Origin: Candidatus Omnitrophota bacterium
GTDB taxonomy: Bacteria > Omnitrophota > Gorgyraeia > DTHP01
DNA length: 63,025 nt
NCBI GenBank assembly: GCA_023819145.1
Contig: JAMWCW010000009.1
Span: 1-63,025 of the forward strand
Direction of reading: 5' to 3'
A model generated the notes under the pieces. It was not told the DNA's origin. It saw only the letters and a program-made list of their open reading frames with translations, and ran no database searches. Within the stretch, counting starts at the first letter, position 1, and each line of letters opens with the position of its first letter. Made by a program: the position numbers and the translations under genes. Shown here one piece after another: positions 3,661-63,025 of this stretch.

Positions 3661-3671
3661 TTATATATCTA

Positions 3672-3851: not shown

Positions 3852-3862
3852 TATTAATGCTC

Positions 3863-45143: not shown

Positions 45144-45959
45144 TTATTTCCCCAGTAACCAGTAGCCGGTAATCAGTAACCAGATGTTTTCTCCCCAAAC
45201 AAGCGTAATGAACCCTCCTAATATTAAAAATGGTCCATAAGGTATATAATGAGATTTTGTCTTCATTAAAGAGATTATACCAAAAATCAAACCGAAGAAA
45301 GGGGCAATAAAAAAAGTAAGTACAATCTTCTCCGCCCCCAAGAATGCTCCCAACATTGCCATAAGTTTAACATCTCCAAAACCCATCGCCTCTTTCTTGA
45401 AAACCAATTTACCCAAGAATCCAATTAACCAAATCATACCTCCACCAACAATTAGCCCCAAAAAGGACTTTTTTAAGGCAGGCAAAACGGACACCTCTTT
45501 GTGAATTTCAGGGAATAACAAACTGAAAAATATACCTAAAACTATCCCCGAAACAGAGATAACATCAGGGATAATCTGGTATTTCAAATCAATAAATCCT
45601 GCTACGAGAAGAGAAGAGAAAAGGATTGTATAGATAAAAAATTTTGTCGTAACGCCGTAACGCATATAAAAGAATAAAAAAATACTTGCACTCAACAACT
45701 CTACAAAAAAATAGCGGGGAGATATTTTTTTACCGCAGTAACGGCATCTACCCAGAAGAATAAAGTAACTCAAAAACGGAACATTGTCATACCAAAGAAT
45801 GGTCTTTTGGCAATTTGGACAATGAGAACGCGGAGAGACAATAGATTTTCCTTCCGGTAGACGAGATATGCAAACATTCAAAAAACTACCTACAAAAGAA
45901 CCAACAATAAAAACGAAAAGTTTAATGTTAAATAGTGAGATTTCTCTTAAATTAAACAA
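45144..45959 (-). CDS. pilD: Prepilin peptidase (A24 family)
   Basis: Cys knuckles CPNC...CRYCGKKIS and the aspartyl motifs GFIDLK and GFGDVKLMAMLGAFLG. Confidence 0.85.
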   Translation of the reverse strand: MFNLREISLFNIKLFVFIVGSFVGSFLNVCISRLPEGKSIVSPRSHCPNCQKTILWYDNVPFLSYFILLGRCRYCGKKISPRYFFVELLSASIFLFFYMRYGVTTKFFIYTILFSSLLVAGFIDLKYQIIPDVISVSGIVLGIFFSLLFPEIHKEVSVLPALKKSFLGLIVGGGMIWLIGFLGKLVFKKEAMGFGDVKLMAMLGAFLGAEKIVLTFFIAPFFGLIFGIISLMKTKSHYIPYGPFLILGGFITLVWGENIWLLITGYWLLGK

Positions 45960-48549: not shown

Positions 48550-49461
48550 CTATTTAATAGCGCCCCTTCTCTGTAAAGTTTCTCTTTCTCCAATAGGCGA
48601 AACCTCTACCTGCTCTGCTTCGTAGACCATAACAATCTCTAAACCCATTCCCCAGAGAAACTTATCAAATGTTTCCTTTATCCTTAACATCTCAGGTGCT
48701 TCTAGGAGAGAATCTACACGAGGACGAAGAGGGGTATTTAACTGAATCTGGTCTCCTGGTTTAAGCCCTAAACTTTTTACTATCTGGGCTATTCTTTCTA
48801 CGCCCTGTTTATTTTCCTGAGTAAACATAATCTGGATTCCCATTCTGCCGGCATAAACTCTTCTAAATTCCTTTATCCCCTCTATTACCGCCGTAAAACT
48901 CAAATCTGGATGAGGACGGTTCATAATCTGGAAAGACTCTTCATCATAGGCATCTATCTTAGCAATGACAAAATCAATATCTCTTAAATCTTCCTGAACA
49001 TCTCTTTGACCTAATAAAGTGGCATTGGTAAGGATAGCAATGGGTATTGAGGTAATATCCTTTATCCCTTTGACTATTTGTCCTAAATTGCTTGCTAAAG
49101 TGGGCTCACCTGTCCCCGAAAAAGTGAGATAATCAATTTTACCCGAATAGTGTTCCAAGACAAATTTTACTTCCCTGATTACTTCCTCTGTGTCAACAAA
49201 GACACTTCTTCCCCTTACAAAAACTTCGGTAGGTCCTATTTGGCAGTAAAAACAATCAAAACTGCAAGTCTTGTCTTCTTGAGAAATGGGGTCGATTCCC
49301 AAAGAAGCACCTAAACGCCAAGAGGAAACTGGTCCATAAACATATTTAAGATTGTATCTTTCCATGTCCACCTTTTTAGCCCTCCTTGCCAAAGCATTTT
49401 GCTTAAAAGATAATACAATTAAACTAACTATCCCTAATAAAATTATCTTTCTAATCCTCAT
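48550..49461 (-). CDS. Radical SAM protein (CxxxCxxC), first gene-proximal member/neighbour of the ARR island; start ambiguous
   Basis: [19 protein letters not shown]...CSFDCFYCQ with a GTGEPT glycine-rich motif. The long form (ATG 49461) adds [31 protein letters not shown]. An alternative GTG at 49371 lies 9 nt after AAGGAGG, which is formed by the A-R-R codons. Confidence 0.8.
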
Positions 49462-50191
49462 CTCTTAGCAATTCTAAAAATTGCTCTTCTATCAATCTTA
49501 TGTGTTCCTTATAAGTAAATTCGGGAAACTCTAAAATAACCAAAGCCTCAAGCTCAATCCCTTTATCCTTGAGTATATATATTATACTATTTAATTGAAA
49601 AACAATCTCCCCCAATTCTGGTTTGTAAGTAGGAGATTTTCGGTTAGAAAAAAATGACAAATCTATAACCAGAACCACCTTCCCCAATTCATCTCCTCGG
49701 GGTAATTCAGAAAGTCTCTCTAGAAGATAAAGGGGGTCACTGTAAATACCCCTTGCCTCATTAGCCATGCGCTGTAAATTATTTTTCCAATCAGGATATT
49801 GCTCTACATACTTTGGGAAAACTACATAAATTTTATCTACGAGGCTATTTTCGCAAATATAACTAAGCCAATTGGTGTTGCTAAGTCTTGAAGTTCCATA
49901 ACGATTGTAATCAAGGTAAGGACTGAGTACCACAAGAGTTGGGTTACTGCTTACAAATCCCCAGTGTATCTTTTGTTTAAGCCAAATGGCGATACCTTCA
50001 GGATAATCTATAATCGCAAACTGAAAAGGATATCCTTTGTTACTTACATAGCCCGAATAAGAAAGTCCTCTGTCCAGTACTCGGTATCTTACTAAAGGAT
50101 AATTTACTACGCGTACACGCCGGGCATAACTAAAGGGACAAGAGATAAAAATAATTAATACCGTAAAAATACAGATAAATTTTTTATTCAT
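49451..50191 (-). CDS. ARR-motif protein; UPF0489/arginase-fold-like paralog with degenerate metal motifs
   Basis: N-terminus MNKKFICIFTVLIIFISCPFSYARRVRVVNYPL. It is a paralog of 50261-50998, but SPYLDYNRYG and VIDLSFFSN replace DAHSD and SIDCDWF. Confidence 0.6.
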   Translation of the reverse strand: MNKKFICIFTVLIIFISCPFSYARRVRVVNYPLVRYRVLDRGLSYSGYVSNKGYPFQFAIIDYPEGIAIWLKQKIHWGFVSSNPTLVVLSPYLDYNRYGTSRLSNTNWLSYICENSLVDKIYVVFPKYVEQYPDWKNNLQRMANEARGIYSDPLYLLERLSELPRGDELGKVVLVIDLSFFSNRKSPTYKPELGEIVFQLNSIIYILKDKGIELEALVILEFPEFTYKEHIRLIEEQFLELLRDED

Positions 50192-50260
50192 TGTCGATAA
50201 TACCTAAATATTTTAATCTTTTTTAGCAATAGATTCTTAGCGGTATTCATCCTGAGTATA

Positions 50261-50998
50261 TTACCTATATCCCCAGAACGCTTTAAGTAGCGTGTCTCTA
50301 ATGAATACTTCCTTATCCATGGTGGTATATCCGGGGGAAAGAGCAATGTTTAAAGCGGCGATGCGGATATTTTTTTCCCGTAAAACTTTAACTATCTCTT
50401 CTACTTTGCCTACAATTTCCTCACCCGATGCGGTATGAAAAGGGTCGTAACAGGAAAACCAATCGCAGTCAATGGAAAGCACTATGGTCTCACCATAAGG
50501 TAAATCATTTAAACTATCAATATCAGATAAATCAGGAAATACTGTTTTTTCCTTAGATAAAAATGCAAATTCCCGAAATATTTCTCTTTCTTTTATTGCC
50601 CAATTCGGGAACAACAAACGCGCCCGACTGCAGAGTCCCTCACCAAGCACAAAACGCACCCAGTTTGCACTCTGGGGCGTATCTCGATGTCCCCAATAGT
50701 CGCTATGGGCATCAAGATACACCAGAGTTAATCCTTTGGGTAGACTCCCTTTTTCTATCATACTTTTTAACCAAAGATATGCTGAAACATGATGTAAGGA
50801 AAAACTTACCGGGAAAGAGAAACTGTATTGTGAATCTATCTGAATACTTTTTATCTCAGTACCTACCACCTCAACAATCTCCAAAGGATACCTAACCTCC
50901 TTTATTCTGCGCGCATAGACAGAAGGGTTAAATATTAAAAGATTCGCTAACAAACAAAATATCCCCCATTTTATTGGCTGGGCGTAGCTTATCTCCAT
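50261..50998 (-). CDS. ARR-motif protein; UPF0489/arginase-fold-like putative metallohydrolase
   Basis: N-terminus ...LLANLLIFNPSVYARRIKEVRYPL. It carries SLHHVSAYLW, LVYLDAHSDYWG (DAHxD) and VLSIDCDWFSCYDP (SxDxD...DP-like). Confidence 0.55.
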   Translation of the reverse strand: MEISYAQPIKWGIFCLLANLLIFNPSVYARRIKEVRYPLEIVEVVGTEIKSIQIDSQYSFSFPVSFSLHHVSAYLWLKSMIEKGSLPKGLTLVYLDAHSDYWGHRDTPQSANWVRFVLGEGLCSRARLLFPNWAIKEREIFREFAFLSKEKTVFPDLSDIDSLNDLPYGETIVLSIDCDWFSCYDPFHTASGEEIVGKVEEIVKVLREKNIRIAALNIALSPGYTTMDKEVFIRDTLLKAFWGYR

Positions 50999-51049
50999 CG
51001 CTTCACTTTCCTTGATAATGTTCTATTACTTTTTTATAATGTTCAAAAC

Positions 51050-51727
51050 TTAAATAAATCCCCTTCTAGCATCGTAGTAATAACCCATCTTTTCCACAAA
51101 AGGAAGTACGTCTTTATCCTCAGATATAAGATACCGTTCTTTAAAACTTTCCCAGGTGAATCTTTCTCTCTCAATCCAGATTGGTGGTTGGTAATAAAAC
51201 CGCCGGGCAATATTTATAAAACTATCTCTTACTATTTCTACTGTTGTCTGGGTATTAACCTTGACCTTAAGTCTAAAATAAACACCCTCTATTTCTGCTA
51301 TGCCCTCATTTACCATGCGACGAAGTTCTCTCCCATTCTCCTCTGAGAGTGAGTTTAATTCACCTTCAATATAAGCAAAGCCGTATTGTATATCGTTTCT
51401 ATCTGCCGAAGACCTTATGGTTAAAATATTCTTATCATAGAGAGTCTCTACTGCTTCGCGTAGAGGAAGCTCTATAAGACGAGGAATGTCTTCCTTTTTA
51501 TTCCTTATTCTTTCTATAAACCACCCTTGTGGCTCTATTTCTACAAGCAAGCGAACCGAATGTTCTGTCATTGCCTTTCCTTTAACTCTCCGCGCGGAGG
51601 CGGCAGGCGGAGCATAAAATAAAACCGTGGTACTGATTATCAGACAAACAAATACCATCTTCTTTATCCTATCCTCATATTTTAATAACTGGATTATATT
51701 CATCTCCCTCTTATCCGCCGTAGTCAC
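51050..51727 (-). CDS. ARR-motif protein, unknown function
   Basis: ...MVFVCLIISTTVLFYAPPAASARRVKGK.... The ORF starts at a GTG at 51727; alternative ATGs lie at 51703 and 51658. No family recognised. Confidence 0.6.
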   Translation of the reverse strand: MTTADKREMNIIQLLKYEDRIKKMVFVCLIISTTVLFYAPPAASARRVKGKAMTEHSVRLLVEIEPQGWFIERIRNKKEDIPRLIELPLREAVETLYDKNILTIRSSADRNDIQYGFAYIEGELNSLSEENGRELRRMVNEGIAEIEGVYFRLKVKVNTQTTVEIVRDSFINIARRFYYQPPIWIERERFTWESFKERYLISEDKDVLPFVEKMGYYYDARRGFI

Positions 51728-51755
51728 GATATCCTTAAACGCATATTAAACTCCC

Positions 51756-52499
51756 TTATTTTATTTCTGCATAATATTCCTTAATTAACCGTTCTGTTTC
51801 TTTTAAATCTCCTCCCGCTCTATTAAGAAAGATATTAATCTGGGAAAACGCATCCCAAGAAAATCGCTCCCCGCGCTCTGTCATTATCTGGGTAACCTTT
51901 GTAATCACAAATACAAAGTTATTTCTTAGGTAAGGATACTTTATCCAGTTCTCTGCAATTACCTCCTCCTTAAACCGCCTTAAGAAATCATAGGCATCGG
52001 GCTGAACATCTTTTTCTTTGGGGTCAATGCGGGTTATTTCAATCAACATCCCCAGTAAAGTTTCAAATCCCTGCTTAATGTCTTTAAGCTCCGTAGGTAA
52101 GTCGCATATATCTTTCAGAACCGAATTTAAACAATAGGAACTGGCTCTTAATCGATGCATACTTTCAATTAGAGCAAATACTAAATCTGCTTTTTCTCTG
52201 TCTTTTAAGGTAGAGAGGCATTTCAAAAATTCTATTAAGGTATAACGGTCATTTTTACTCAGCTTCCTTATCCTCTCCAGATAATAATAAAAATCTTCCT
52301 TGTTAGATATTGCTTCTAAATTTTTAACTAAGGGCATTAATTCAGAAACCTTTAAGTTAAATTCAGAGGCTAAATCACGAACGATGTTGTCAGTATTTCT
52401 CTCGGAAACAAAAAGTAGTCTGCGCGCCTCAACAGATGTTGAGAAAAGTAGTAAACCCAGCAGAATAGTTAATAATATTCTTAATCTAAAACCTTTCAT
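51756..52499 (-). CDS. ARR-motif protein, predicted all-helical, unknown function
   Basis: N-terminus MKGFRLRILLTILLGLLLFSTSVEARRLLFVSERN. There is no SD before the ATG. A 20-bp palindrome lies 12 nt upstream. Confidence 0.65.
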   Translation of the reverse strand: MKGFRLRILLTILLGLLLFSTSVEARRLLFVSERNTDNIVRDLASEFNLKVSELMPLVKNLEAISNKEDFYYYLERIRKLSKNDRYTLIEFLKCLSTLKDREKADLVFALIESMHRLRASSYCLNSVLKDICDLPTELKDIKQGFETLLGMLIEITRIDPKEKDVQPDAYDFLRRFKEEVIAENWIKYPYLRNNFVFVITKVTQIMTERGERFSWDAFSQINIFLNRAGGDLKETERLIKEYYAEIK

Positions 52500-52510
52500 C
52501 TTATCTAAGT

Positions 52511-52530
52511 TATTGATATTAATATCAATA
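52511..52530. promoter_or_regulatory. Perfect 20-bp palindrome (operator-like) immediately upstream of gene 51756-52499
   Basis: TATTGATATT|AATATCAATA is a perfect inverted repeat centred 21 nt upstream of the ATG at 52499. Confidence 0.4.
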
Positions 52531-52549
52531 AAGTGCTAAATAAAATATA

Positions 52550-52619
52550 ACACCTCTTTGGGGTGTCGTCAAGATAGGAGCAGATATAAAAAACCCTCAC
52601 TTTTTTTGGGGGGTGGTTT
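52550..52619 (-). terminator. Two weak hairpins with flanking T/A tracts downstream of gene 52636-53343
   Basis: The first is ACACC-tctttgg-GGTGT (52550-52566), followed on the minus strand by TATATTTTATTT. The second is AAAAAACCCTCAC-T7-GGGGGGTGGTTTTT (52588-52621); it folds better as plus-strand RNA, so it is ambiguous. Confidence 0.3.
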
Positions 52620-52635
52620 TTATTGAGGAGATTCT

Positions 52636-53343
52636 TTATTCCGCACCGATGAACACGAGATCACTCAAGACAGCGGGAATATCATCCCGGAAGCGGGAAG
52701 GATCCCACGGTCCGTTGTTAAAAGAAATCGTGATATAGGAAAGTTTATCTTGAGAAAACTTCCTTAATTTATCCAAATCTACTACTACCAACCTTGGACT
52801 ATCTTCTTCTTTTAAAGGATTGGGTAATCTACCCATTAATACTCGCTTAGTAAAGTAAACTGGCGAAACCAGTTGCGACTTACCTTGTGCTTTAATATCT
52901 TGACTGAAGGTAAATTCTAAATCAAGATTAACCCTATCACTATTGGGATAAACATAAAAAGCAAAGTATTTTGCTTGGGCAAGTTCTGGAAAATTATTCA
53001 GGTCTAATCTAAATCCGATGACTGCCCCGGCAATTGCCCTTTTCTGATCTACAGGTGTAATTATGCCTCTATTCGTATCAATGTGCAGAGTACCTGTCTG
53101 ATGAGAATAACTGTTCTCAAAAAAAATCTCCCACATTTTGTAAGCAGGATTTACTCCTGCGGGAACAAATGCTTGAGAAATTACCCTTAATCCCTTCGGT
53201 AACAAAGATTCAATTCCACCTTTAGGAATGGGCAACAGATATTTCTCCTTATCACCCAGAAAAGGGTTAGTCGCTTTTGTAGCCTCGCTACTTTGGATAA
53301 GCGGAAGCACACTGGTGAAAATCCTCATCCCAATAACCTGCAT
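52636..53343 (-). CDS. Hypothetical beta-rich protein; N-terminal targeting region apparently lost/out of frame
   Basis: 235-aa ORF with no signal-like N-terminus. Upstream (53421-53350), a different frame encodes (T)LKKAVVTLVLLVVCLVIQVYQFTVYA right after an AGGAGG, with ACG where the start codon would be expected. Confidence 0.55.
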   Translation of the reverse strand: MQVIGMRIFTSVLPLIQSSEATKATNPFLGDKEKYLLPIPKGGIESLLPKGLRVISQAFVPAGVNPAYKMWEIFFENSYSHQTGTLHIDTNRGIITPVDQKRAIAGAVIGFRLDLNNFPELAQAKYFAFYVYPNSDRVNLDLEFTFSQDIKAQGKSQLVSPVYFTKRVLMGRLPNPLKEEDSPRLVVVDLDKLRKFSQDKLSYITISFNNGPWDPSRFRDDIPAVLSDLVFIGAE

Positions 53344-53471
53344 AGACTGTAAACTGATAAACCTGGATAACCAAACACACTACTAACAACACCAGCGTAA
53401 CAACCGCCTTCTTTAACGTCTCAACCTCCTTTCTAACTTAGACCGATATAATTATTAATAATGCCTTACTT

Positions 53472-53499
53472 TTAATATTAAGTGGTAGTTATTTGTAAA
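53472..53499 (-). promoter_or_regulatory. Candidate promoter upstream of gene 52636-53343
   Basis: The minus strand reads TTTACA (53499-53494), a 16-nt spacer, then TATTAA (53477-53472). It lies about 45 nt upstream of the AGGAGG at about 53425-53430. Confidence 0.3.
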
Positions 53500-53609
53500 G
53501 AGTTTATACTTTCAGGCGGAGCATTAATTTATGCGGTTATGGTTATTTAAGATATTTACCACCAAAGTTATCTCGTAACATATTCGTCAAGAGCGGGAAT
53601 AAATAAATT

Positions 53610-54089
53610 CTACGGCACATGTTTACTCCACCATAATCTGAACCAAGCAGGAGGAATCCCCATTTGCGCTCCCCCACTAAGCAACCGCGCAAGAACTTCT
53701 TCTTCTAAGATCAGATAATCCAAATTCGCATCCTCTACTGGGAATTCTTCATCATTGTTCTTTAGAATACTTGCCTCTTTACCCAAAAACTCTCTGAAGG
53801 TAATCTCTCCCTTAAGCCAACCTTTGAGCCGGGCAATAAAACCCAATCTATCGCTTACAGGTATGCGGACATAAACTATACTAAACGGACTAATATCGCT
53901 GAACCCCGGAGGAAGTATATGCGTAATAAATACAGGTATAATAACAACCGACTGAGATAATCCATCGTAACTTACCTTAGCATCCTTTATCCTTCTACAA
54001 ATTACACTCTGCTCTGATATTATAATCTTAAATGTCAAACCTAAAACCAACGCTAACATAGCCAATCCCAAAAAAATTTTTGTTTTCAT
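53610..54089 (-). CDS. ARR-variant (C-R-R-I-K) protein, unknown function
   Basis: N-terminus MKTKIFLGLAMLALVLGLTFKIIISEQSVICRRIKDAKV. 159 aa with a Trp-rich C-terminus (PPAWFRLWWSKHVP). Confidence 0.6.
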   Translation of the reverse strand: MKTKIFLGLAMLALVLGLTFKIIISEQSVICRRIKDAKVSYDGLSQSVVIIPVFITHILPPGFSDISPFSIVYVRIPVSDRLGFIARLKGWLKGEITFREFLGKEASILKNNDEEFPVEDANLDYLILEEEVLARLLSGGAQMGIPPAWFRLWWSKHVP

Positions 54090-54133
54090 ACCTACCTCCT
54101 TTTAAGAAATGGACTGTTAACTTAGCTAATGCA

Positions 54134-55114
54134 TCACAAATAAATAATATACCGCCTTAGATAACTCGCGTTTTCAAAATCCTCTTGTGCTTCTTTAAAT
54201 CTTCCTAATTTGGCTTTGGCAAGCCCGCGGTTATAGAAGGCATTATAGTCATAGGGATTTAATGCTATTGCCTCATCAAAATTCTTTATGGCAGATTCAT
54301 ATAAACCTAATTCCGCCATTAAAGCCCCTAAATTATAAAAAGCCTCCTCATGCCCGGGGTCAAGGATAAGTGCCTTTTCATAATCGTTAATGGCCTCAGT
54401 GTATTCTCCTCTTTCCGCTTTATCAAAACCACTGCTTACATATCTAGCAGCCAATATCCCTTGAGGATAAAGAATATAAATAAATTTATAGTCTCTTGAC
54501 AATCCAACTTTACCTGATACTTTTTGGAAAATTTTATGGAAGATACTTCGCTCTTTCAAAAGCCATATACCACTTTGAGGCTCATAATTATCTCTCCAGA
54601 CAAAAACAGGGCTCTGGTAATTACGCATCAAATCTAAAATTAGACAAGATGCGGAGTCTAATCTTATTAGGGTGGCAATGTGCGCAGGATAAACAGAAAT
54701 TACCTCTACCTCTAAACCTATCTCTCTCCCCAAAACATAAAAAAGTTGACTATAGCCTAAACAATTGGCTTCTCTTGCCTTAAACAGTGTTATTAAATCA
54801 AAGATTCTTGCTTCTTCGTCAGGAATAATTTTTTCTTTTATCATCAAGACCAGTCGCACAATCTTCTCTTCAACGGGTAATGTTTTTAGTTCTTCCAAAT
54901 CAGGAAAAACCTCTTTTATCAAACTAACAATTTCTGCTCTCTCCTCTTCGTAGCCGATAGCGAAAAGCGTCTTTTGTAAGGAAGTTACCGATTCTATATT
55001 TTTTAGCCGTCTTGCCTCAATAGACCTCATAAAAAAAATAAGCGTTGCCATACAGAAAACAATATCTGAAATGATATTTCTCTTAAATCTTAGTCCCATA
55101 TGAATCCTTCCCAT
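54134..55114 (-). CDS. ARR-motif SirB1-like transglutaminase-core + TPR protein (paralog 1)
   Basis: ...FCMATLIFFMRSIEARRLKNIES.... The C/H/D candidates are REANCLGYSQLFYVLG, PAHIATLI and LILDL. It has about 3 C-terminal TPRs. An alternative start at ATG 55099 has a better SD. Confidence 0.7.
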   Translation of the reverse strand: MGRIHMGLRFKRNIISDIVFCMATLIFFMRSIEARRLKNIESVTSLQKTLFAIGYEEERAEIVSLIKEVFPDLEELKTLPVEEKIVRLVLMIKEKIIPDEEARIFDLITLFKAREANCLGYSQLFYVLGREIGLEVEVISVYPAHIATLIRLDSASCLILDLMRNYQSPVFVWRDNYEPQSGIWLLKERSIFHKIFQKVSGKVGLSRDYKFIYILYPQGILAARYVSSGFDKAERGEYTEAINDYEKALILDPGHEEAFYNLGALMAELGLYESAIKNFDEAIALNPYDYNAFYNRGLAKAKLGRFKEAQEDFENASYLRRYIIYL

Positions 55115-55128
55115 CTCCCAATATAAGT

Positions 55129-55998
55129 TTAGGGAGAAGAATTTCCCGCTGTCTGCTGATTAAGATGGTAATAAGTACTCAGGGCAATAAATTTCTCTAA
55201 TGCCTGACTTAATTCCTCCTCACTATACGCTTTAAAATGAGGCATTCCTGTCTCTTTATCCAATCTTAAAATACCCACAGTCTCTATGGGAACTAAAAGT
55301 GGTTTAAAAACATAATTTTCTCCTTCTCTAACCCAATATCCACCCATCTCCTCTATCGCCGCTTTGTATGCGGATAGTTGCATTACATACTCTGCGAAAA
55401 AATCTTTAGCGGTTTTAAAATCTACTAACCACAACGTGCCATCAACTGTTGCTAACATGTCAAAAGTCCCAGCATAACCATGTTCTAAAGAAACCACTAC
55501 GCCCTCTAAAGCCACCGGCTCCAAGTGGTTTGTCTCTAGCCATTTTAAAAATGCGCTAAAGGCAGTTCCTGCTTCTTGCGGAGGAGAAAAAGAAGAAGGT
55601 TGGCCATTCCTTAAATATTTTTCTATTGCTGAATGAACTTTAGTCCCCGTATCTGCAGCTTCATCTCGAGCATTCATTGCCAATCGTAAATACTGATAAC
55701 TCTTCGTAGGGTCGGGAACTATCTTATTTTTTGCCAAATACTCCACCACCAACCGTATGCCCCAGTTTAATAAGCCAGGTTTATTTAAAATCCCCAGAAT
55801 GGTTGTAACCGAAGGAGTTTTCACTCCATTAACCGTATAAATGTGCTTTGTGGGATTAAAGGTTATGTTTATAGCATCTGCTTTTGCGGTTCGCATCCGC
55901 CGTAATTGATAGTCTATAAAACCATAATCTATCTTAAAAACCATAAAACAAAAAATAGGCACCAAATACACTACTTCTAACAATCTATTCCTCTTCAT
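55129..55998 (-). CDS. PD-(D/E)XK (RecB/Cas4-like) nuclease with N-terminal hydrophobic helix and L-R-R-M-R variant motif
   Basis: N-terminus MKRNRLLEVVYLVPIFCFMVFKIDYGFIDYQLRRMRTAKA. It also has HIYTVNGVKTPSVTTILG, GTFDMLATVDGTLWLVDFKT (D...D-x-K) and QLSAYKAAIEE (QxxxY). Confidence 0.65.
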   Translation of the reverse strand: MKRNRLLEVVYLVPIFCFMVFKIDYGFIDYQLRRMRTAKADAINITFNPTKHIYTVNGVKTPSVTTILGILNKPGLLNWGIRLVVEYLAKNKIVPDPTKSYQYLRLAMNARDEAADTGTKVHSAIEKYLRNGQPSSFSPPQEAGTAFSAFLKWLETNHLEPVALEGVVVSLEHGYAGTFDMLATVDGTLWLVDFKTAKDFFAEYVMQLSAYKAAIEEMGGYWVREGENYVFKPLLVPIETVGILRLDKETGMPHFKAYSEEELSQALEKFIALSTYYHLNQQTAGNSSP

Positions 55999-56027
55999 AT
56001 TAACCTCCTCTCTTTAATTCTAAAAAA

Positions 56028-57326
56028 CTAACCCTCTTTTAGCGACGATGATAACAATTCCTGTATTTCTTGGGGAAACTGCTCATATAATTTTTGGTCT
56101 AAGCGTAGCGCTTCTCTAAAATCCGCTAATGCCTCTTCTTTTTGATGAAGGTCAAAAAACCTAACTAAGCCCCGAGCAACATAAGCTCTTACATAATCAG
56201 GTTGAATCTCAATAGCTTTGGTATAATCACTGACTGCCGCTAGAATAAACCCTAATTCTTCAAAAACGCTCCCCCGATTGCAATAAGCTAACGCATTATC
56301 CGGTTCAAGTTCAATGGCTTTGTTAAGGTCGCTGATTGCTTCATCATATAACCCCAATTTAAAGTATGCACTACCGCGGTTAGAATAAGCAGAAGCAAGT
56401 CGGGGACTAAGTTCAATAGCTTTGTTAAAATCGCTAATTGCTTCCTTGTATAAACCTAGTTCTTTTTTTGACACTCCGCGACCGCAGTAGGCCTCAGCAA
56501 AATAAGGATTTAATTCAATAGCCTTGTTAAAATCTAAAACTGCCTCCTGATGCAAACCTAATTCTTCTAAAATAACTCCACGGTCGTAATACGCTATATA
56601 ATAATCAGGATTTAGCTCAATTGCCCGGGTATAATTTGCAATCTCTTCTTGATATAAACCTAATTTGCCTCTAGCAGATCCATAATGACAATACCTTACA
56701 GCTAATATTCCTCGCTCATCTAAGCGCTGAATAACCTCATAGCCATTTCTGCGTAAAGAATCCAATAAAGAAGAATTACCTTCTTTCAAATGCCAAATAC
56801 TTGCTTCGCATTGGTAGGTATTATCCCAATTAAAAATCTCACTTTTACCATAAAACATTCCTTCTACAGCCAAATCTAAAAGCATAAATCCTTCTTCTAA
56901 CTCTATTAGATTGGCTACATGTTCCGAAGAAACCAAAATTATTTCTACCTCTAACCCTATTTCTTTCCCCAGAATATAGAAGAGTTCACTATAGCCTACA
57001 CAGTTTGCTCTTTTTTCTCTCAAAACATTGATTAAATCACACATGTCTTCCTGGTAAATTCCAACCACACTCTTTATCATCGATACCAATTGTTCAATTT
57101 TCTCTTCAACAGGTAAGGTCTTTAGTTCTTCCAATTCGGGGAAAACCTCTTTTATCAAACTAACGATTTCTTCTGCTTCCTTTTCATAGCCAATAGCGAA
57201 AAGTGTCTTCTGTAAGTAAGTTACCGATTCTATATCCTTTATCCGTCTTGCCTCTAAAGTCCCAAGAGGAAATAAAATTACGCTTAAAAAAACAATTCCT
57301 GTTATCTTAAGTATAAAACTATTCAT
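56028..57326 (-). CDS. ARR-motif SirB1-like transglutaminase-core + TPR protein (paralog 2)
   Basis: N-terminus MNSFILKITGIVFLSVILFPLGTLEARRIKDIES. The C/H/D candidates are KRANCVGYSELFYILG, EHVANLI and LLDL. It has about 6 TPRs. The ORF track extends to a GTG at 57362; I preferred ATG 57326 because AAGGA lies 9 nt upstream. Confidence 0.7.
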   Translation of the reverse strand: MNSFILKITGIVFLSVILFPLGTLEARRIKDIESVTYLQKTLFAIGYEKEAEEIVSLIKEVFPELEELKTLPVEEKIEQLVSMIKSVVGIYQEDMCDLINVLREKRANCVGYSELFYILGKEIGLEVEIILVSSEHVANLIELEEGFMLLDLAVEGMFYGKSEIFNWDNTYQCEASIWHLKEGNSSLLDSLRRNGYEVIQRLDERGILAVRYCHYGSARGKLGLYQEEIANYTRAIELNPDYYIAYYDRGVILEELGLHQEAVLDFNKAIELNPYFAEAYCGRGVSKKELGLYKEAISDFNKAIELSPRLASAYSNRGSAYFKLGLYDEAISDLNKAIELEPDNALAYCNRGSVFEELGFILAAVSDYTKAIEIQPDYVRAYVARGLVRFFDLHQKEEALADFREALRLDQKLYEQFPQEIQELLSSSLKEG

Positions 57327-57435
57327 TATTCTATTTTCCTTCGTGTAACCGCATATACTCACGCGTACGCTGATAATACTCCTGATAGACTTGTTTGAAA
57401 TAGTCCGCGTATAATTCTGATCATCAAAATTCAGT

Positions 57436-58695
57436 TTATTTTCTGAGTAACTCTTTTATTTCCTGAGGAAGTAAATCATATAAATCGGGATTTAATAAAA
57501 CAGCAGTTTTTAAATCCTGAATCGCTTCTTCAAATTGACCTAACCTATAGCGCACTAGTCCGCGTGCGGAGAAAGCTGAGGCTAAAAACGGATTTAAGAC
57601 AAGCGCTTCTGTATAATCTGAAATTGCTTCCTCCAATTGGCCTAATTTAACTCTCAAGTTTCCCCGATTTAAAAACGCTAAAGCATAATCAGGTTTTAGT
57701 TCAATGGCTTTATCAAAATCATTCATTGCTTCTAAATATCGTCCTAGTTTATACCAACTAATACCACGATTTAAAAATGCCAATGCGTAATCGGGCTTAA
57801 GTTCAAGAGCTTTTGTATAGTCGCTTATTGCTTCCATAAACTGCCCTAAATCATGTCTTACAATACCGCGATTGTAGAAAGCTTCCGCTAAAGTAGGATT
57901 TAATTCTATAGCTTTTGTAAAATCTAAAATTGCCTCTTCTAACTGTTTTAACTGCACTCTGGCAACTCCGCGATTGCAAAAGGCGAAAGAAAAATCGGGC
58001 TTAAGTTCAAGAGCTTTTGTATAGTAAATAACCGCTTCGGCAAAATAACCTAAGTCATGTCTGGCAACTCCACGGTTATAATGCCTGCCAGCAACGATCT
58101 CTTGTTCGTTCAAACGTGCAGCCAAATTGTATTTCCCAGACAAACCCCTCCCTTCTCTAAACCGCCATAAATTACCATCCTGGACATAATTCTCTCGCCA
58201 AAAAACTGTTATTCCTCTAATATCTAAGAAATCATCGGTTAAATCCACAATCACAAACTGAGAACCAATTCTTATTAAATTTATAGCGTGGTTAGGATAA
58301 ATTAAAATTATCTCTGCCTCCAGACCAATCTCTTTACCCAGAACATAAAAAAGTTGACTATAGCCAAAACAATTCGCTTTTTCTTCTCTCAAAACTGCAG
58401 TTAATTCAAAGGTACCTTGCTCATAAGTTTTAATCTTCTCCTTTATCATCAAAGCCAGTTGTTCAATTCTTTCCTCAACAGGTAATGTCTTTAGTTCCTC
58501 CAAATCAGGAAAAACCTCCTTTATCAAAGCAATAATTTCTTCTACCTTCTCTTCGTAGCCGATAGCAAGAAGCGTCTGGTGTAAGGAAGTTTTTGCTTCA
58601 ATATCCTTTACCCGTCTTGCCTCAGTTGAAAAAGTGCATAAAAATAATAAGCTCAAAATTAAAAAACAATAGGTTTTTATCTTAATTTTTTTCAT
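57436..58695 (-). CDS. ARR-motif SirB1-like transglutaminase-core + TPR protein (paralog 3)
   Basis: N-terminus MKKIKIKTYCFLILSLLFLCTFSTEARRVKDIEA. The C/H/D candidates are EKANCFGYSQLFYVLG, NHAINLI and IVDL. It has about 6 TPRs. Confidence 0.75.
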   Translation of the reverse strand: MKKIKIKTYCFLILSLLFLCTFSTEARRVKDIEAKTSLHQTLLAIGYEEKVEEIIALIKEVFPDLEELKTLPVEERIEQLALMIKEKIKTYEQGTFELTAVLREEKANCFGYSQLFYVLGKEIGLEAEIILIYPNHAINLIRIGSQFVIVDLTDDFLDIRGITVFWRENYVQDGNLWRFREGRGLSGKYNLAARLNEQEIVAGRHYNRGVARHDLGYFAEAVIYYTKALELKPDFSFAFCNRGVARVQLKQLEEAILDFTKAIELNPTLAEAFYNRGIVRHDLGQFMEAISDYTKALELKPDYALAFLNRGISWYKLGRYLEAMNDFDKAIELKPDYALAFLNRGNLRVKLGQLEEAISDYTEALVLNPFLASAFSARGLVRYRLGQFEEAIQDLKTAVLLNPDLYDLLPQEIKELLRK

Positions 58696-58722
58696 CTTTT
58701 TCTTATTAATAAACTAGAGTAA

Positions 58723-60198
58723 CTAATAGACCAGACAGTAATCACTGGAATTTTTTCTATAGCAGATGTATTCTCTGCCATCTTCCTTAGTCCGCCATAT
58801 GCTACTTATACATGTATCACCGTATTCGGTATTTAGAAACACACGCTCTTTTAGCAATAAATAATTATAGAGTGGCAAAAGATTACCCTTTTCTATTTCT
58901 TTGATAACGTAAGCCCTCAACAATTCTGGAGTAGTAACAAAACGGGAGAACATCTCTGCAAAGGTCTCGTGGAAAATAATCGTCTCACTTAAATTCCTTG
59001 ATTTACTATTGTAAAAAGATTCCAAGAATTCGACATCTCCACGGAAACCATTTTTGTAGAAATTAATACCCCCTACAAAATCTTCAAAGATGTGCCCAAT
59101 TTCATGAACTAATATATAACCACTTGCTGACTTAAACAGGTCAATCTGAGACATGCCAAAGAATAAAAAATCAACATAAAAGGCTAATCCTGTAGAAATA
59201 CTCGGTATCCCGGGGTAGATAAAATCTGAATAACTACCTTCCAAAAATCTTATGCGATTTACTGCCTTGAGTATGTCTTTCGGGAGCAATTGAAGAGCAA
59301 AGGCTAGAGCTTTAATTTCTTCAAGCTCAAACTTTCTTAAATTCTGTTCTCCACCAATCTGGATACCGCTTTCTCTTGCAGCCGTAAGGAAGTTTTCTAT
59401 CAGATTGTCTTTGAAATTTTCACCCTGATTAAATTTGTATCCCCCATCAACATCTTTTCCCCATAACCGCAGGACAAGATAGGAAAAATCAGGAATAATT
59501 GCGTAGGCGGGATAGCGACTATTAGTGTTTAGTGCTAAATCTCTTACCTCTCTTGCTGAAGTTATAAGTTTATCCTTTTGGATAAATTCTGCCAAAAGAG
59601 GATTATACATAAACTGCCATTTTTCTTCCTCCGGTTTTTTATAGGCCACAAAAGTCATCGCTCGGATGCCTTTTTCGGTAACAGTTGGGACTGTAACCAA
59701 ACGCACATCATCTCCTGCCGCCCTAAGGGCAAGGGCTTGAACAAAAATTAATTCCTCTAAAGTAGCATCTTTATTATTAAGTAATGTATTTAAAGGCCTG
59801 CAAACAAAATCAGAATTAAAAATCTTAGGTATTAAACCTTCCGCAGAAATGTCAAAAATAGAAGAGTAGCGGGTTATTTCTTCAGTAAGTGTAAGTATTT
59901 TATCGGCGGTATCATAGTAAAATAAAGTTTCTAATTCTTCTTCCAACAATGTTTCTCTTGCCCTTAAATCAGGAAAATTTCTCCCGACATATGTCATAGT
60001 AAAGGACATTCCCTCAAGGTTTAAAATATATTCTTGGTTATCCTCTGCAGTAATAGAAGAAATAGGTATATCCGATGGAATTTCATATACTTTGTTTACT
60101 GTATCTGAGAATCCTAATCCACAATTAAATACGAAAGTAAAAATGATAATAATTATAAACATATTTCTGCCTTTTCTTGTGAAATAATCTTCCACCAT
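58723..60198 (-). CDS. Putative secreted zinc metallopeptidase (HExxH), no ARR motif
   Basis: Signal-like N-terminus (RKGRNMFIIIIIFTFVFNCGLGFS). It carries ILVHEIGHIFEDF (HExxH), and a downstream FHETFAEMF could supply a third ligand. Family not recognised. Confidence 0.5.
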   Translation of the reverse strand: MVEDYFTRKGRNMFIIIIIFTFVFNCGLGFSDTVNKVYEIPSDIPISSITAEDNQEYILNLEGMSFTMTYVGRNFPDLRARETLLEEELETLFYYDTADKILTLTEEITRYSSIFDISAEGLIPKIFNSDFVCRPLNTLLNNKDATLEELIFVQALALRAAGDDVRLVTVPTVTEKGIRAMTFVAYKKPEEEKWQFMYNPLLAEFIQKDKLITSAREVRDLALNTNSRYPAYAIIPDFSYLVLRLWGKDVDGGYKFNQGENFKDNLIENFLTAARESGIQIGGEQNLRKFELEEIKALAFALQLLPKDILKAVNRIRFLEGSYSDFIYPGIPSISTGLAFYVDFLFFGMSQIDLFKSASGYILVHEIGHIFEDFVGGINFYKNGFRGDVEFLESFYNSKSRNLSETIIFHETFAEMFSRFVTTPELLRAYVIKEIEKGNLLPLYNYLLLKERVFLNTEYGDTCISSIWRTKEDGREYICYRKNSSDYCLVY

Positions 60199-60253
60199 AG
60201 ATCACAAAAAGAATCCAATCTATTTTTAACATTTCTAAAATATTATCTCTTAT

Positions 60254-62170
60254 CTAAGGAAAAGAAATCTTTACGATACTTTTCCTTACCGCATCAGCCA
60301 CATAGATAATGCCATCTTTTTCAAGCATACCACCCTGAGGTCTGACTATACTGCCAAAAGCAATATTTTTATACTCGCCTGTTAGCAAATCAATTATTAC
60401 CAGGTGATTATCTTGTAAATCAATTACATAGATAATCCCATCTATCTCAACCATCTCTTCTGGTTTAATCAGGCTTCCCCAAGCAATATCCTCATAGTCA
60501 CCGCTTTCTAAATCAACCCTCACCAGGCATCCTTTTCCCCAGTCGGCCAAATAAGCGATCCCCTCTTTTACAACAATATCTTGAGGTGTAACCAAACTAC
60601 CAGCAGCAATATCTCGGCATTCACCGCTTTCTAAGTCAATTCTCACCAACCAACCTTTTCTCCAATCCGTTACATAAACAACTCCTTCTTTTCCTATCAT
60701 TTGCCGAGGCTCAATCAGACTCCCCGGAAAAATATTCTGATATCCACCGTTGTTTAAATCTATCTTTACCAAACCCTGTTTTCCAGCATCAGCCACGTAG
60801 ATAAAATTACCATTTTTTACCATTGAACACGGATCAAGTAAACTTCCGGGGGCAATATCTTGAAACATCCCATTGCTTAAGTCTATTCTTACGAGGCACT
60901 GCTTTCCCCAATCAGCTACATACATAAAATTATCCTCCAATACCATATGAACAGGATCGCTCAAGCTCCCTGGGGCAATATCTTGAGATAGGCCACTGTG
61001 TAAGTCTATTTTAACTAAACATCCTTTACCCGCATCAGCAACATAAATATAATCTCCTTCCATCACTGTAAACCGCGGATTAATCAAATTACCGGTCGCA
61101 ATATCTTCTACCCTTAAACTCCGGAGTTCTAACTGCCTATAGGCTTGAGATTCTCGGTTTTTAACTAATATATTATTAATAAAATCGCTCAATTTATCCA
61201 CTGTAGGCTTTCCTCCATCAGCAACAGAAGAGAGGGTATTCGCAGTTATTTCTTCTCTAAATAAACCGATAAAATCTTGCAATTTATCTATATTTTCATC
61301 CACAATATAACCATTTAACCCCCATTCTGCCAGATAACTCTTAAAACCTTCTTCTAAGATATTAGATATCTCTCTATCGCTAAAACCGTTCCTGAGCGAG
61401 TGATAGGTTAAAGTAATCACCCACTCGCAGATTGCCTGGCCAACGGAAAAATAAAGGTAATCATAAGGGTCAATTTTAGAAACATGGGCAAAATCCCTTA
61501 AGCCCGATAGACCTATATTGGAATAACACAAATTTTCTGCAAGCTTTTCTATGCCGCCGAGGGGATAATAATTCCAAAACCATTTTCTGCCGGAACCTCG
61601 TTCATGGGTTAGCGGAGAAAGCGATTTATGCAAGTAACCTACCTGAAGTAAACGGGCAAATTGGGTTATGGAACGCAGAGCACATTCTTTCATCTTCTCG
61701 ACATCTTTTATATCCTCAGGATAAATAAAATAATCCTCAGGTGCAATATAGGTTATATACTGGTAGGAACTATCTACAACAGTTGGTTCTCCGTGGAGCT
61801 TACCTTGGTATTTAAAGATAAAGATGCCATTTTCGCTTATCACAAATGGAACAAAATCTAAACCCCTGGTGTTCAATTCCCGTAACATTTCTGCTTCCTT
61901 TTCTAATTCAGCCAAAGATTCTCCTTTTCTTAAGAATTTAAACGCCTGCACTAGACCATTGCCAAGAGGTATAACTGCAGTGCGGGAATGCCAGCTAGAG
62001 GAAGAAAGATTCTCCAGATACGATGGTAATTCCCTATTAGATAAAAAAACGCTGTATGGAACAACCTGCTCATTTATGATATGCACTCTACGGGCAAAAG
62101 CTGGTTGCCAAGAAAAGATAATCAACACCAAAATAACCAACCATTTAATTTTTAAACCAAAAACCTTCAT
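60254..62170 (-). CDS. ARR-motif protein: N-terminal kinase-like(?) domain + C-terminal 7-bladed beta-propeller (NHL-like 41-aa repeats)
   Basis: N-terminus MKVFGLKIKWLVILVLIIFSWQPAFARRVHII. The mid region has AFKFLRKGES, ELEKEAEMLREL, GYLHKSLSPLTH and SGLRDFAH, a layout resembling a protein-kinase-like fold (speculative). The C-terminal 278 aa form 7 repeats. Confidence 0.65.
   Translation of the reverse strand: MKVFGLKIKWLVILVLIIFSWQPAFARRVHIINEQVVPYSVFLSNRELPSYLENLSSSSWHSRTAVIPLGNGLVQAFKFLRKGESLAELEKEAEMLRELNTRGLDFVPFVISENGIFIFKYQGKLHGEPTVVDSSYQYITYIAPEDYFIYPEDIKDVEKMKECALRSITQFARLLQVGYLHKSLSPLTHERGSGRKWFWNYYPLGGIEKLAENLCYSNIGLSGLRDFAHVSKIDPYDYLYFSVGQAICEWVITLTYHSLRNGFSDREISNILEEGFKSYLAEWGLNGYIVDENIDKLQDFIGLFREEITANTLSSVADGGKPTVDKLSDFINNILVKNRESQAYRQLELRSLRVEDIATGNLINPRFTVMEGDYIYVADAGKGCLVKIDLHSGLSQDIAPGSLSDPVHMVLEDNFMYVADWGKQCLVRIDLSNGMFQDIAPGSLLDPCSMVKNGNFIYVADAGKQGLVKIDLNNGGYQNIFPGSLIEPRQMIGKEGVVYVTDWRKGWLVRIDLESGECRDIAAGSLVTPQDIVVKEGIAYLADWGKGCLVRVDLESGDYEDIAWGSLIKPEEMVEIDGIIYVIDLQDNHLVIIDLLTGEYKNIAFGSIVRPQGGMLEKDGIIYVADAVRKSIVKISFP
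60257..61090 (-). repeat. Seven tandem 123-nt (41-aa) coding repeats = propeller blades
   Basis: The units have the form SL.(D/E)P..MV..g..iYVADwGK.cLVrIDL.sG...dIA.G, six of 41 aa plus a last unit of 32 aa. They are diverged at the DNA level. Confidence 0.8.
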
Positions 62171-62212
62171 CTTAAACCTTATCCTTTCCGCTTTATAAAA
62201 TATTCACTGTTA

Positions 62213-63025
62213 TCATTTATCTAATAATGCTCGTATTTCTTTAGGAAACTGCTCAGATAACTTCGGGTCTAAGCGCAATGCTTCTCTAAAATCTGCTAAT
62301 CCCTCTTCTTTTTGATAAAGGTTGAAAAACCTAACTAAGCCCCGAGCAACATAAACTTTTGCATAATCAGGTTGAATCTCAATAGCCCTTGTGTAATCAT
62401 TGAGGGCATCATCGTATAAACCTAATGCAGTTTTTACAGCGCCGCGCCCGAAATAGGCGTCAGTATAATTAGGATTGAGCCCAATCGCCTTTGTGTAATC
62501 CTCAATCGCCTCTCTATGCATACCTAATTCTGCCAAACAATTACCACGTTCGTAATATACGGTACAATCATTTGGGTCAAGTTTAATAGCCTGGTTGTAG
62601 TACGCTATGGCCTGTTTGAAACGACCCAAAATCGCCTCATTAAATCCGTAGCTAAAATATCTGGCTGCGATTATACCATCATCATTTATTCTTTCGATTA
62701 ATTTGTATCCTCCTAATATATCATTTAAGGGATTATCTTCTTTTAAACGCCATAATGATCGGGAAACCTTTTCATAAATTTCTTCCCAGATAAAAACAGG
62801 ACCCTGATAAATAATATCAGGGGCTAAATCTAAAATTGTATAGCCATGACCTAATTCAAACAAATTTGCTACGTGCGTAGGAAAAACTGAAATTATTTCT
62901 ACCTCTAAACCTATGCTCTTACCTAAAACATAAAAAAGTTGACTATAGCCAAAACAATTCGCTTTTTCTTCTCTCAAAACTGCAGTTAATTCAAAGGTAC
63001 CTTGCTCATAAGTTTTAATCTTCTC
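62213..63025 (-). CDS. SirB1-like transglutaminase-core + TPR protein (paralog 4), 5' end beyond window
   Basis: The frame is open to the window end: EKIKTYEQGTFELTAVLREEKANCFGYSQLFYVLGKSIGLEVEIISVFPTHVANLFELGHGYTILDL... plus about 5 TPRs. The M at 62977 in the ORF track is an internal TTG. Confidence 0.75.
   Translation of the reverse strand, partial: EKIKTYEQGTFELTAVLREEKANCFGYSQLFYVLGKSIGLEVEIISVFPTHVANLFELGHGYTILDLAPDIIYQGPVFIWEEIYEKVSRSLWRLKEDNPLNDILGGYKLIERINDDGIIAARYFSYGFNEAILGRFKQAIAYYNQAIKLDPNDCTVYYERGNCLAELGMHREAIEDYTKAIGLNPNYTDAYFGRGAVKTALGLYDDALNDYTRAIEIQPDYAKVYVARGLVRFFNLYQKEEGLADFREALRLDPKLSEQFPKEIRALLDK

Follow-up and report, generated by a model that had tools for sequence, protein, structure and literature searches.

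A conserved Arg-Arg motif directly after a Sec-like N-terminal signal marks unrelated, island-clustered proteins of Omnitrophota

An island of co-oriented genes with a common N-terminal motif

The window analysed here is a stretch of 63,025 nucleotides from a Candidatus Omnitrophota bacterium (contig JAMWCW010000009.1, positions 1 to 63,025), in which the minus strand holds all long open reading frames (ORFs) and the GC content is uniform (0.31-0.41). Positions 1-48.6 kb carry housekeeping genes: synthesis of 3-deoxy-D-manno-oct-2-ulosonic acid (KDO), of lipid A and lipopolysaccharide (LPS) and of fatty acids, recG, recJ, aro genes and leuA. From position 48550 to the window end lies an island of 14 co-oriented and closely packed ORFs, 13 of them complete. 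In 10 of these 13 (48550-62170, minus strand), the product has a short basic N-terminus and a hydrophobic stretch directly followed by the motif [A/C]-R-R-[VILA]-x; an eleventh carries LRRMR instead. The Arg-Arg pair and the residues behind it are called the tag below and are numbered from +1 at the first Arg. The ORFs, coordinates and peptides reported by an earlier reading of the DNA made without database searches (the sequence-only reading) were all found again on the minus strand.

To measure the excess of the motif, a strict pattern, [AGC]RR[VILM][KRH], was used, with a per-position probability of 2e-5 derived from the amino-acid composition of the window. Within residues 15-60 of the 53 ORFs of the window 0.05 matches were expected and 8 were observed. 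These were found in 8 of the 14 island ORFs and in none of the 39 others (Fisher p = 3.4e-6), and the one further strict match in all window proteins is internal (GRRLR, residue 188 of a glycosyltransferase). As had been claimed, the motif is absent from the other signal peptides of the window (527-2938, the lipoprotein 12008-12859 and the HExxH protein 58723-60198), and it is not a DNA repeat: the codons for A-R-R differ among unrelated genes, GCA AGA CGG being common only to three paralogous genes of the transglutaminase-like (TGase) and TPR type. A duplicated DNA segment shared by the members, raised earlier as a possible trivial origin, is contradicted by these differing codons. CGN codons for Arg had been thought rare, which was wrong as they make up 43% of the Arg codons of the window. 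CGG accounts for 7 of the 22 Arg codons in tags, compared to 9% of window Arg codons, an excess that may mean nothing because 3 of the 7 come from the paralogous TGase-TPR genes.

The genes of the island are listed below; ↓ marks the putative cleavage site, and the motif is followed by the coordinates of its codons.

48550..49461 (-): radical SAM protein, 303 amino acids (aa), PF04055 E = 9e-15; tag ↓RRAKK (ARRAK, 49375-49389)
49451..50191 (-): 'UPF-a', ureohydrolase-fold paralog, 246 aa, 5 of 6 metal-ligand positions lost; CPFSYA↓RRVRV (ARRVR, 50111-50125)
50261..50998 (-): 'UPF-b', predicted ureohydrolase-fold enzyme, 245 aa, six candidate metal ligands kept; NPSVYA↓RRIKE (ARRIK, 50900-50914)
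51050..51727 (-): orphan, 217-225 aa; APPAASA↓RRVKG (ARRVK, 51581-51595)
51756..52499 (-): orphan, 247 aa; MKGFRLR-ILLTILLGLLLF-STSVEA↓RRLLF, a variant at +4 (ARRLL, 52413-52427)
52636..53343 (-): orphan, 235 aa; without the motif, N-terminus weakly hydrophobic
53610..54089 (-): orphan, 159 aa; SEQSVIC↓RRIKD, Cys at -1 (CRRIK, 53985-53999)
54134..55114 (-): transglutaminase-like (Cys-His-Asp) protein with TPR; MRSIEA↓RRLKN (ARRLK, 55001-55015)
55129..55998 (-): PD-(D/E)XK nuclease-fold protein, 289 aa; IDYQL↓RRMRT, no small residue at -1 (LRRMR, 55891-55905)
56028..57326 (-): transglutaminase-like plus TPR paralog; MNSFILK-ITGIVFLSVILF-PLGTLEA↓RRIKD (ARRIK, 57237-57251)
57436..58695 (-): transglutaminase-like plus TPR paralog; MKKIKIK-TYCFLILSLLFLCTFST-EA↓RRVKD (ARRVK, 58606-58620)
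58723..60198 (-): HExxH protein, 491 aa; ordinary signal or anchor N-terminus without an RR tag
60254..62170 (-): SidJ-related pseudokinase-like domain plus NHL-type beta-propeller, 638 aa; MKVFGLKIK-WLVILVLIIFSW-QPAFA↓RRVHI (ARRVH, 62081-62095)
62213..63025 (-): fourth transglutaminase-like plus TPR paralog, partial; N-terminus past the window end

The earlier domain assignments (radical SAM, PD-(D/E)XK, TPR with a transglutaminase core, kinase-like with propeller) stood when checked, as did the arginase fold, by an AlphaFold2 model and Foldseek. The mature domains had also been described as unrelated; many of the families are, while the TGase-TPR genes (three complete, the fourth partial) share 46-49% identity as paralogs and the two ureohydrolase-fold (arginase-fold) genes 26%. 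The TGase-TPR products match TPR families and, weakly, Transglut_core (E = 0.0047 for 54134-55114), with C109, H136 and D151 invariant across the paralogs; their N-terminal domain has no sequence relative in the PDB and none in viral contigs. The nuclease-fold protein 55129-55998 matches PF12705 (E = 7e-8) and has weak Cas4 similarity. The product of 60254-62170 matches NF033874 with E = 7e-21 and 74.6 bits, below the cutoff of 300, and its propeller resembles NHL structures, Pizza designs and the PknD sensor domain. The orphan 51050-51727 has no match in Pfam, NCBIfam or PADLOC and no BLAST relative among the other island proteins. The Cys at -1 of 53610-54089 is also seen in a tagged transaldolase-fold family described below.

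Two complete genes carry no tag. ORF 52636-53343 cannot be extended upstream, as it already begins at the first start codon past the preceding stop. Upstream of it lies the longest intergenic gap of the island (53343-53610, 266 bp), in which no Rfam family or tRNA was found. The HExxH protein 58723-60198 has a 53% identical homolog, likewise without RR, within the island of locus L010. Pfam and PDB sequence searches gave no meaningful relative of it, and a single-sequence AlphaFold2 model was unusable (predicted local distance difference test, pLDDT, 39). It is a candidate partner of the tagged proteins.

Conservation in other lineages and cargo

In total, 41 proteins from at least nine metagenomic lineages (at least eight besides that of the window) bear the signature, and the 37 that are full-length fall into 19 families without BLAST similarity after removal of the N-terminus. 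Arg-Arg is invariant in the 41 proteins and kept in orthologs that are 24-75% identical, which bears out the earlier proposal of selection on the peptide motif itself and meets the concern that orthologs might not conserve it. The fetched DNA amounts to 814 kb with 826 ORFs; in this set the strict motif is confined to island-bearing lineages, and the roughly 70 control loci from other organisms, which carry the short form of the radical SAM gene, gave no match. Nor was it a general trait of signal peptides or membrane anchors among the other signals and anchors sampled. Combined, these sequence comparisons support the motif as a lineage-specific signature common to unrelated, island-clustered proteins.

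The islands differ between close relatives. Locus L010, which belongs to the same organism group, shares its gene order with the window (radical SAM, leuA, aroE, A24 peptidase, aroC, aroK, on to recJ and recG), and its housekeeping proteins are 77-93% identical to those of the window. Between relatives, island proteins are 53-75% identical compared to 77-93% for the flanking housekeeping proteins (window 40525-62170 versus L010; 6820-9285 and 48550-50191 versus L009). The 14 ORFs of the window's island compare with at least 4 in L010 and 2 in L009. Consecutive tagged genes number 7 in L011 and 10 in L093; there are 3 tagged genes in L095, 2 in L009/L013/L014, and singles on short contigs. A scan of genome contigs with the TGase N-domain returned one close relative, on a 3-kb Candidatus Omnitrophota contig (L001); the ortholog of 54134-55114 in L010/L001 bears FLEA↓RRVKE. 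Variable island content, a majority of orphan members without family match and expansion of the TGase-TPR type to four copies are repertoire-like traits. The recurring core of the islands is the radical SAM gene with one or two ureohydrolase-fold genes.

The radical SAM gene 48550-49461, left as ambiguous by the sequence-only reading, is a true member, as its six nearest orthologs with an N-terminal extension all bear xRR[VI][KRQ] (WGRRVKE, WARRVRE, SVRRIKG, FARRVKS, QGRRIQS and EARRIKE). The extension is found in the nearest orthologs only. The wider family is about 258 aa long without it, so that the tag has been added to an enzyme fold whose wider family lacks an N-terminal extension. CxxxCxxC is kept in all tagged orthologs. 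Relative to the untagged 258-aa family, the tagged clade (48550-49461, P0002-P0005, P0008 and P0009) shows a change of NTPLRPC to NTPLRPR[VL], and its closest members carry in addition an inserted LGLKPGD; the catalytic domain therefore changed along with the gain of the signal.

The arginase-fold family has 7 members among 5.8 billion database proteins; they are 24-50% identical to the window copy and all carry ARR. Outside the islands, a transaldolase-fold subfamily (408-423 aa, 5 database members found) has a signal-like N-terminus followed by C-R-[RK], the transaldolase domain beginning at residue 49. Its loci are L009 4568-5839, L097 9983-11227 and L098 439-1668, with the tags AFC-RKVKD, AFC-RRSKD and KSC-RRTLD; the L097 gene had been called too late, its true start being the ATG at 9983. 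The neighbours are ilv genes in L009 and L097, and an L31 gene lies nearby in L098. A fourth member (P0137) has a lipobox-like LSSC in place of the tag. In L098, the minus-strand ORF 2661-4724 encodes a protein of 687 aa with a PRK/uridine-kinase domain (PF00485, E = 2e-26) and the tag PYEIA-RRIVSPE, and the lipoproteins and the outer-membrane protein near it have ordinary signals. A 34-column profile of the signal, run against a library of 1.84 billion representative proteins, recovered only the window's own proteins at E <= 1e-3 and is too weak to find new cargo; alignment A8, of the ureohydrolase-fold group, diverged too far to serve in a pattern scan.

Wherever a domain could be recognised in a tagged protein, it is of a cytoplasmic type: radical SAM, transaldolase fold, PRK/uridine kinase, SidJ-like pseudokinase, PD-(D/E)XK, TGase-like Cys-His-Asp and ureohydrolase. 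The remaining tagged proteins are orphans without family match. The tag was found on no classical periplasmic, outer-membrane or polysaccharide-degrading domain, and such proteins in the same loci bear ordinary signals. After the motif itself, this split between cytoplasm-type and ordinary exported proteins is the most striking result.

Anatomy of the N-terminal signal

The anatomy of the signal was derived from the 41 sequences, the hydrophobic h-region being taken, by a home-made measure, as the longest stretch free of D, E, K, R, N, Q, H and P. The n-region has a mean net charge of +2.1 and the h-region a median length of 13 residues (range 7-19), both as expected of a Sec signal cleaved by signal peptidase I (SPase I), whose h-region measures some 7-15 residues and is shorter than a transmembrane anchor. 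A c-region of about 7 residues follows, with Pro at -5 in 10 of the 41 and at -4 in 5, and the uncharged span of h- and c-regions amounts to about 20 residues. Position -3 is A, S, L, I, T, V or C in 37 of 41, and position -1 is a small residue, again in 37 of 41 (A in 32, G in 3 and C in 2), as is usual for SPase I. Up to -1 the residues thus fit the textbook Sec/SPase I pattern, as far as can be judged from sequence. Beyond this point, +1/+2 are Arg-Arg in 41 of 41, and the core set never has KK or KR there; at +3 come I (17), V (16) and L (5), and at +4 K (24) and R (11), while +5 is mostly E, G or D, with E or D in 15. The two flanks of the hydrophobic helix are equally charged, +2.1 over the 15 residues after it and +2.1 before it. 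In the AlphaFold2 model of 50261-50998, residues 8-23 form a helix, a linker of low confidence (residues 24-31, pLDDT < 50) holds the tag, and the domain begins at residue 37.

Ordinary exported proteins encoded in the same loci have no RR. They include MlaA (MSEA↓ADL), MlaC (LSWA↓MNP), a protein with a carbohydrate-binding module (SLYA↓EEK), an alginate-export outer-membrane protein and several lipoproteins. In the roughly 10 such signals sampled the build is the same, with neutral or acidic residues past the cleavage site. What appears to be new is a post-cleavage Arg-Arg tag on a Sec-type signal, the Sec-type signal itself being known.

The statement that the motif fits no known signal was upheld. 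Eight N-termini were compared with NCBIfam/TIGRFAM sorting-signal models at E values up to 10 and gave only noise, and full-length scans returned no signal-type match. No description of the motif turned up in a search of the Omnitrophota literature on signal peptides, effectors and secretion signals, recent genome surveys included. A twin-arginine translocation (Tat) signal was rejected, as RR comes after and not before the core and the n-regions are rich in Lys, with a twin Arg in few. A lipoprotein (SPase II) signal was also rejected: 39 of 41 have no Cys next to RR, and although two core and three transaldolase-family members have a Cys before the basic pair, VIC, QIC, AFC and KSC are not a canonical lipobox (L-[AS]-[GA]-C with Cys at +1). 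Finally, no N-terminus has the G↓F/M site ahead of the hydrophobic helix, with Glu at +5, of a prepilin (class III) signal. The A24 prepilin peptidase 45144-45959, which the sequence-only reading had named as a candidate, was likewise rejected; it sits among aro genes in an arrangement conserved in a close relative, the tagged proteins have no G↓F site, and nothing ties it to the motif.

Candidate roles of the tag, and minor features of the window

The sequences establish that the motif exists, that it is conserved and specific to island proteins, and that it is built like a signal peptide; we infer that export depends on Sec, that cleavage falls at A↓RR, and that the tag is recognised and leads to a common destination. 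We tentatively propose a two-part signal, a reading that we find plausible without being persuaded of it. The Sec-type signal peptide would carry the protein across the inner membrane, SPase I would cleave after the Ala at -1, and the exposed N-terminal Arg-Arg-[Ile/Val/Leu]-[Lys/Arg] would serve as a second-step sorting tag. This tag would part the co-encoded set from ordinary periplasmic and outer-membrane proteins and direct it to a common destination beyond the inner membrane. The likeliest destination would lie beyond the producing cell, in or at a prey or host cell attached to it. A predatory or parasitic lifestyle has been proposed for most Omnitrophota (PMC10066038), and the cargo needs cytoplasmic cofactors (S-adenosylmethionine (SAM) with a reductant, ATP and sugar phosphates); a prey or host cell is therefore the most plausible place for it. 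By analogy with PEXEL and ASAFAP, an envelope translocon might even read Arg-Arg and move the enzymes (radical SAM, kinases, nuclease, cysteine-protease-like and aldolase-fold) into the prey cytoplasm, and the arginase-like enzyme may edit the N-terminal Arg residues to ornithine along this pathway, an extension that we regard as doubtful.

Several points weigh against two-step sorting. In work on E. coli, basic residues at +1/+2 hinder Sec export and are disfavoured. The CxxxCxxC motif of the radical SAM proteins is strictly conserved, though for an enzyme that Sec exports unfolded no route is known by which it would acquire an Fe-S cluster, SAM or a reductant outside a cytoplasm; the only account that we can infer for an exported radical SAM enzyme would be delivery into another cell. 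In the loci examined, no gene for a translocon, a receptor or a dedicated peptidase goes with the islands. With V, L or T at -1, four or five variants are poor SPase I sites. We know of no precedent for a transaldolase-fold protein or a PRK-type kinase as a secreted effector. The comparison with ordinary signal peptides of the same genomes rests on about 10 sampled sequences.

The proposed signal can be set beside known systems. Like Sec/SPase I signals, it is made up of n-, h- and c-regions, with a helix-breaking residue between -4 and -6 and small ones at -3/-1 (PMC9360617). It differs in the invariant Arg-Arg at +1/+2, in [IVL][KR] at +3/+4 and in being confined to a co-encoded subset. The ASAFAP or AxA↓F motif of complex plastids (heterokonts, cryptophytes) has a similar Ala at -3/-1, a conserved residue just past the signal and, as cargo, enzymes of a metabolically active compartment; its +1 Phe decides onward import across further membranes after cleavage of the signal (PMC2567999). 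That system is eukaryotic, however, with Phe, a long transit peptide and known import machinery, whereas here the residues are Arg-Arg. PEXEL (RxLxE/Q/D, Plasmodium), here no more than an analogy, is also a short Arg motif after an ER-type hydrophobic signal on unrelated effector families of a parasite, RR[IVL][KR][E/D] loosely fitting R-x-L-x-E/D, and the mature N-terminus carries export information (PMC10653839). In contrast to the present motif, which abuts a signal-peptidase-type site in a bacterium, PEXEL lies further downstream and is cut after Leu by an aspartic protease. TEXEL (RRLxx) and RxLR are host-targeting motifs of the same kind as PEXEL. Residues past a cleavage site also choose the destination in the +2/+3 Lol rules for lipoproteins, the lipoprotein export signal of Bacteroidota and the N22 segment of the curli protein CsgA, but the proteins so directed are lipoproteins, or one substrate whose outer-membrane channel is known, and in no case is the cue RR.

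As a short, invariant and searchable tag marking 19 unrelated families, the motif would offer a way to list candidate cargo in any Omnitrophota genome, and it could be used in phylogenetic profiling for the machinery. For the ultra-small, uncultured Omnitrophota, whose dealings with other cells are little understood, neither a delivery signal nor a repertoire of effectors has so far been described. The tag also challenges the rule from model bacteria that basic residues are avoided right past a signal peptide, and raises the question of why an export-type signal should stand on enzymes dependent on SAM, ATP or an Fe-S cluster. If dedicated machinery or delivery into prey were confirmed, this would be a new kind of bacterial sorting system.

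The strongest alternative, which we nevertheless consider unlikely, is that the N-terminus is an uncleaved tether: RR-x-K would stop translocation by the positive-inside effect ('charge block'), the helix would stay in the inner membrane and the enzyme in the cytoplasm. This would explain the cargo more simply, as all annotated cargo is cytoplasm-type and cofactor-dependent and the tagged transaldolase-fold gene lies among housekeeping ilv genes rather than in an island. The uncharged h- and c-span of about 20 residues could cross a bilayer, for which about 18 or more are needed, whereas the h-region by itself has a median of 13; topology rules, by which an N-out/C-in anchor has the more positive flank on its C-terminal side, give no clear answer when the two flanks are equally charged; and a helix is freed from SecYEG by positive charges at its C-terminal end (Tooke et al. 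2017, as reviewed in PMC9360617, which also sets out the tripartite and positive-inside rules). However, the sequence-only reading had offered both a Sec-type signal and an N-out anchor, and the former fits the anatomy better; the anchor, kept alive by the cytoplasm-type cargo, needs an N-out/C-in topology that positive n-regions such as MKKIKIK and MNRKKLKK disfavour. The h-regions are short, while anchors of the same loci are as long or longer (about 15-16 residues in DivIC and in a TPR protein of L009, more than 22 in LpxK). Tethering gives no reason for Ala, Gly or Cys at -1, for small or aliphatic residues at -3 or for Pro near -5, and an invariant RR goes beyond the needs of a charge effect. 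Orphan-rich, fast-evolving and variable islands are unexpected for tethered housekeeping enzymes, and the lipobox-like LSSC of P0137 suggests export.

The second alternative concerns the ureohydrolase-fold pair. The AlphaFold2 model of UPF-b (50261-50998) has a pLDDT of 82, and Foldseek ranks the peptide arginase OspR (8brp, E = 1.7e-7) first among its matches, all the rest being agmatinases, arginases and other ureohydrolases, with TM-scores of 0.45-0.56; the UPF-b sequence profile also matches 8brp (E = 1.7e-5). As modelled, UPF-b has the alpha-beta-alpha fold of the ureohydrolases with His, DxHxD and DxD ligands, the candidates being H69/H70, D96, H98, D100, D177 and D179. OspR converts peptide Arg to ornithine with the ligands His12, Asp39, His41, Asp43, Asp165 and Asp167 and is a dimer whose interface binds the substrate (PMC10028609). 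If H69 is the ligand, the spacing from first His to first Asp in UPF-b is 27, equal to that between H12 and D39 of OspR. In UPF-a (49451-50191), alignments A4 and A8 show loss of DxHxD and DxD while ARR is invariant. UPF-type genes are present in every island seen whole, standing beside a ligand-less paralog in the window, in L011 (6151-7731) and in L095 (9292-10747), which suggests from sequence an enzyme with a pseudoenzyme partner.

RR could thus be mainly a site of modification or processing, either because the arginase-like enzyme turns the exposed Arg of its neighbours into ornithine, possibly together with the radical SAM enzyme, or because a dibasic protease cuts there. This idea, compatible with two-step sorting as well as with a tether, seems to us rather improbable. 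A guanidino-group hydrolase beside Arg-Arg-tagged proteins is suggestive, which is not evidence that the two are linked. Besides the fold and the six ligands kept in the UPF-b group, it would accord with the tag of UPF-b itself, which would place it in the same compartment as its putative substrates, with the probably flexible segment holding the tag in the model and with a ligand-less partner recalling the OspR dimer. If true, it would be the first editing of Arg to ornithine on whole proteins and not on small natural-product peptides. On the other hand, UPF-b scores only 25 bits against a cutoff of 350 with NF052474, the NCBIfam peptide-arginase model (FlmR/OhkR family), and is placed outside that family; the TM-scores are modest, and agmatine, arginine or some other guanidino compound may just as well be the substrate. 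Unlike the peptide arginases OspR and FlmR/OhkR, which belong to pathways for peptides made on the ribosome and modified after translation (RiPPs), it has a signal peptide, no precursor-peptide gene nearby and whole proteins as putative substrates. L009 has the ligand-less paralog only, adjoining its radical SAM gene; a radical SAM partner cannot work in the periplasm; and the tagged transaldolase-fold and PRK loci have no UPF gene nearby.

An atypical Tat-like or other route for folded cofactor proteins, with RR read after the core, is very improbable. The near-invariant twin Arg in an N-terminal signal and a cofactor enzyme among the cargo recall Tat, and a radical SAM protein would need folded export to keep its cluster. 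In Tat signals, however, RR precedes a weakly hydrophobic core (S/T-R-R-x-F-L-K) and is read there by TatC (PMC9360617), whereas here it follows a strongly hydrophobic core of the kind used by Sec and the signal recognition particle, on the wrong side of the h-region, with no second hydrophobic stretch past RR. Least probable of all is that these are ordinary signal peptides shaped by chance, by a lineage-wide compositional habit or by a duplicated N-terminal segment: some instances were inherited by paralogs (the three complete and one partial TGase-TPR genes and the two ureohydrolase-fold genes), but the excess over expectation, the 19 unrelated families with codons that differ between genes, the invariance of RR over at least nine lineages while the flanks diverge and its absence from ordinary signals of the same loci refute this.

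As for the remaining features of the window, Rfam and tRNA scans of its whole length were empty. A prophage or a defence island was rejected; PADLOC models gave no defence-system match to the island proteins, the weak similarities to pVip (E = 1e-8) and Cas4 (E = 3e-6) reflecting the general radical SAM and PD-(D/E)XK folds. The minus-strand ORF 527-2938 encodes a protein of 803 aa with an ordinary signal peptide and no Pfam match; inside it, at 1485-1856, lies a 21-bp tandem repeat of 17.7 copies encoding Gly/Thr-rich heptads (TNPAGGG / TGQDGKV). Three LPS-core genes are fused, at 12886-14988 (two GT9 heptosyltransferase stretches in one ORF), 17192-19333 (a GT4-GT9 fusion) and 19345-21300 (a lipid A acyltransferase with an ELM1-like domain). 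Among the housekeeping genes, 4649-5200 (minus strand) encodes a small nucleotidyltransferase (NTP_transf_5 / DUF2204, with a weaker AbiEii match), which could be a remnant of a toxin-antitoxin or defence system.

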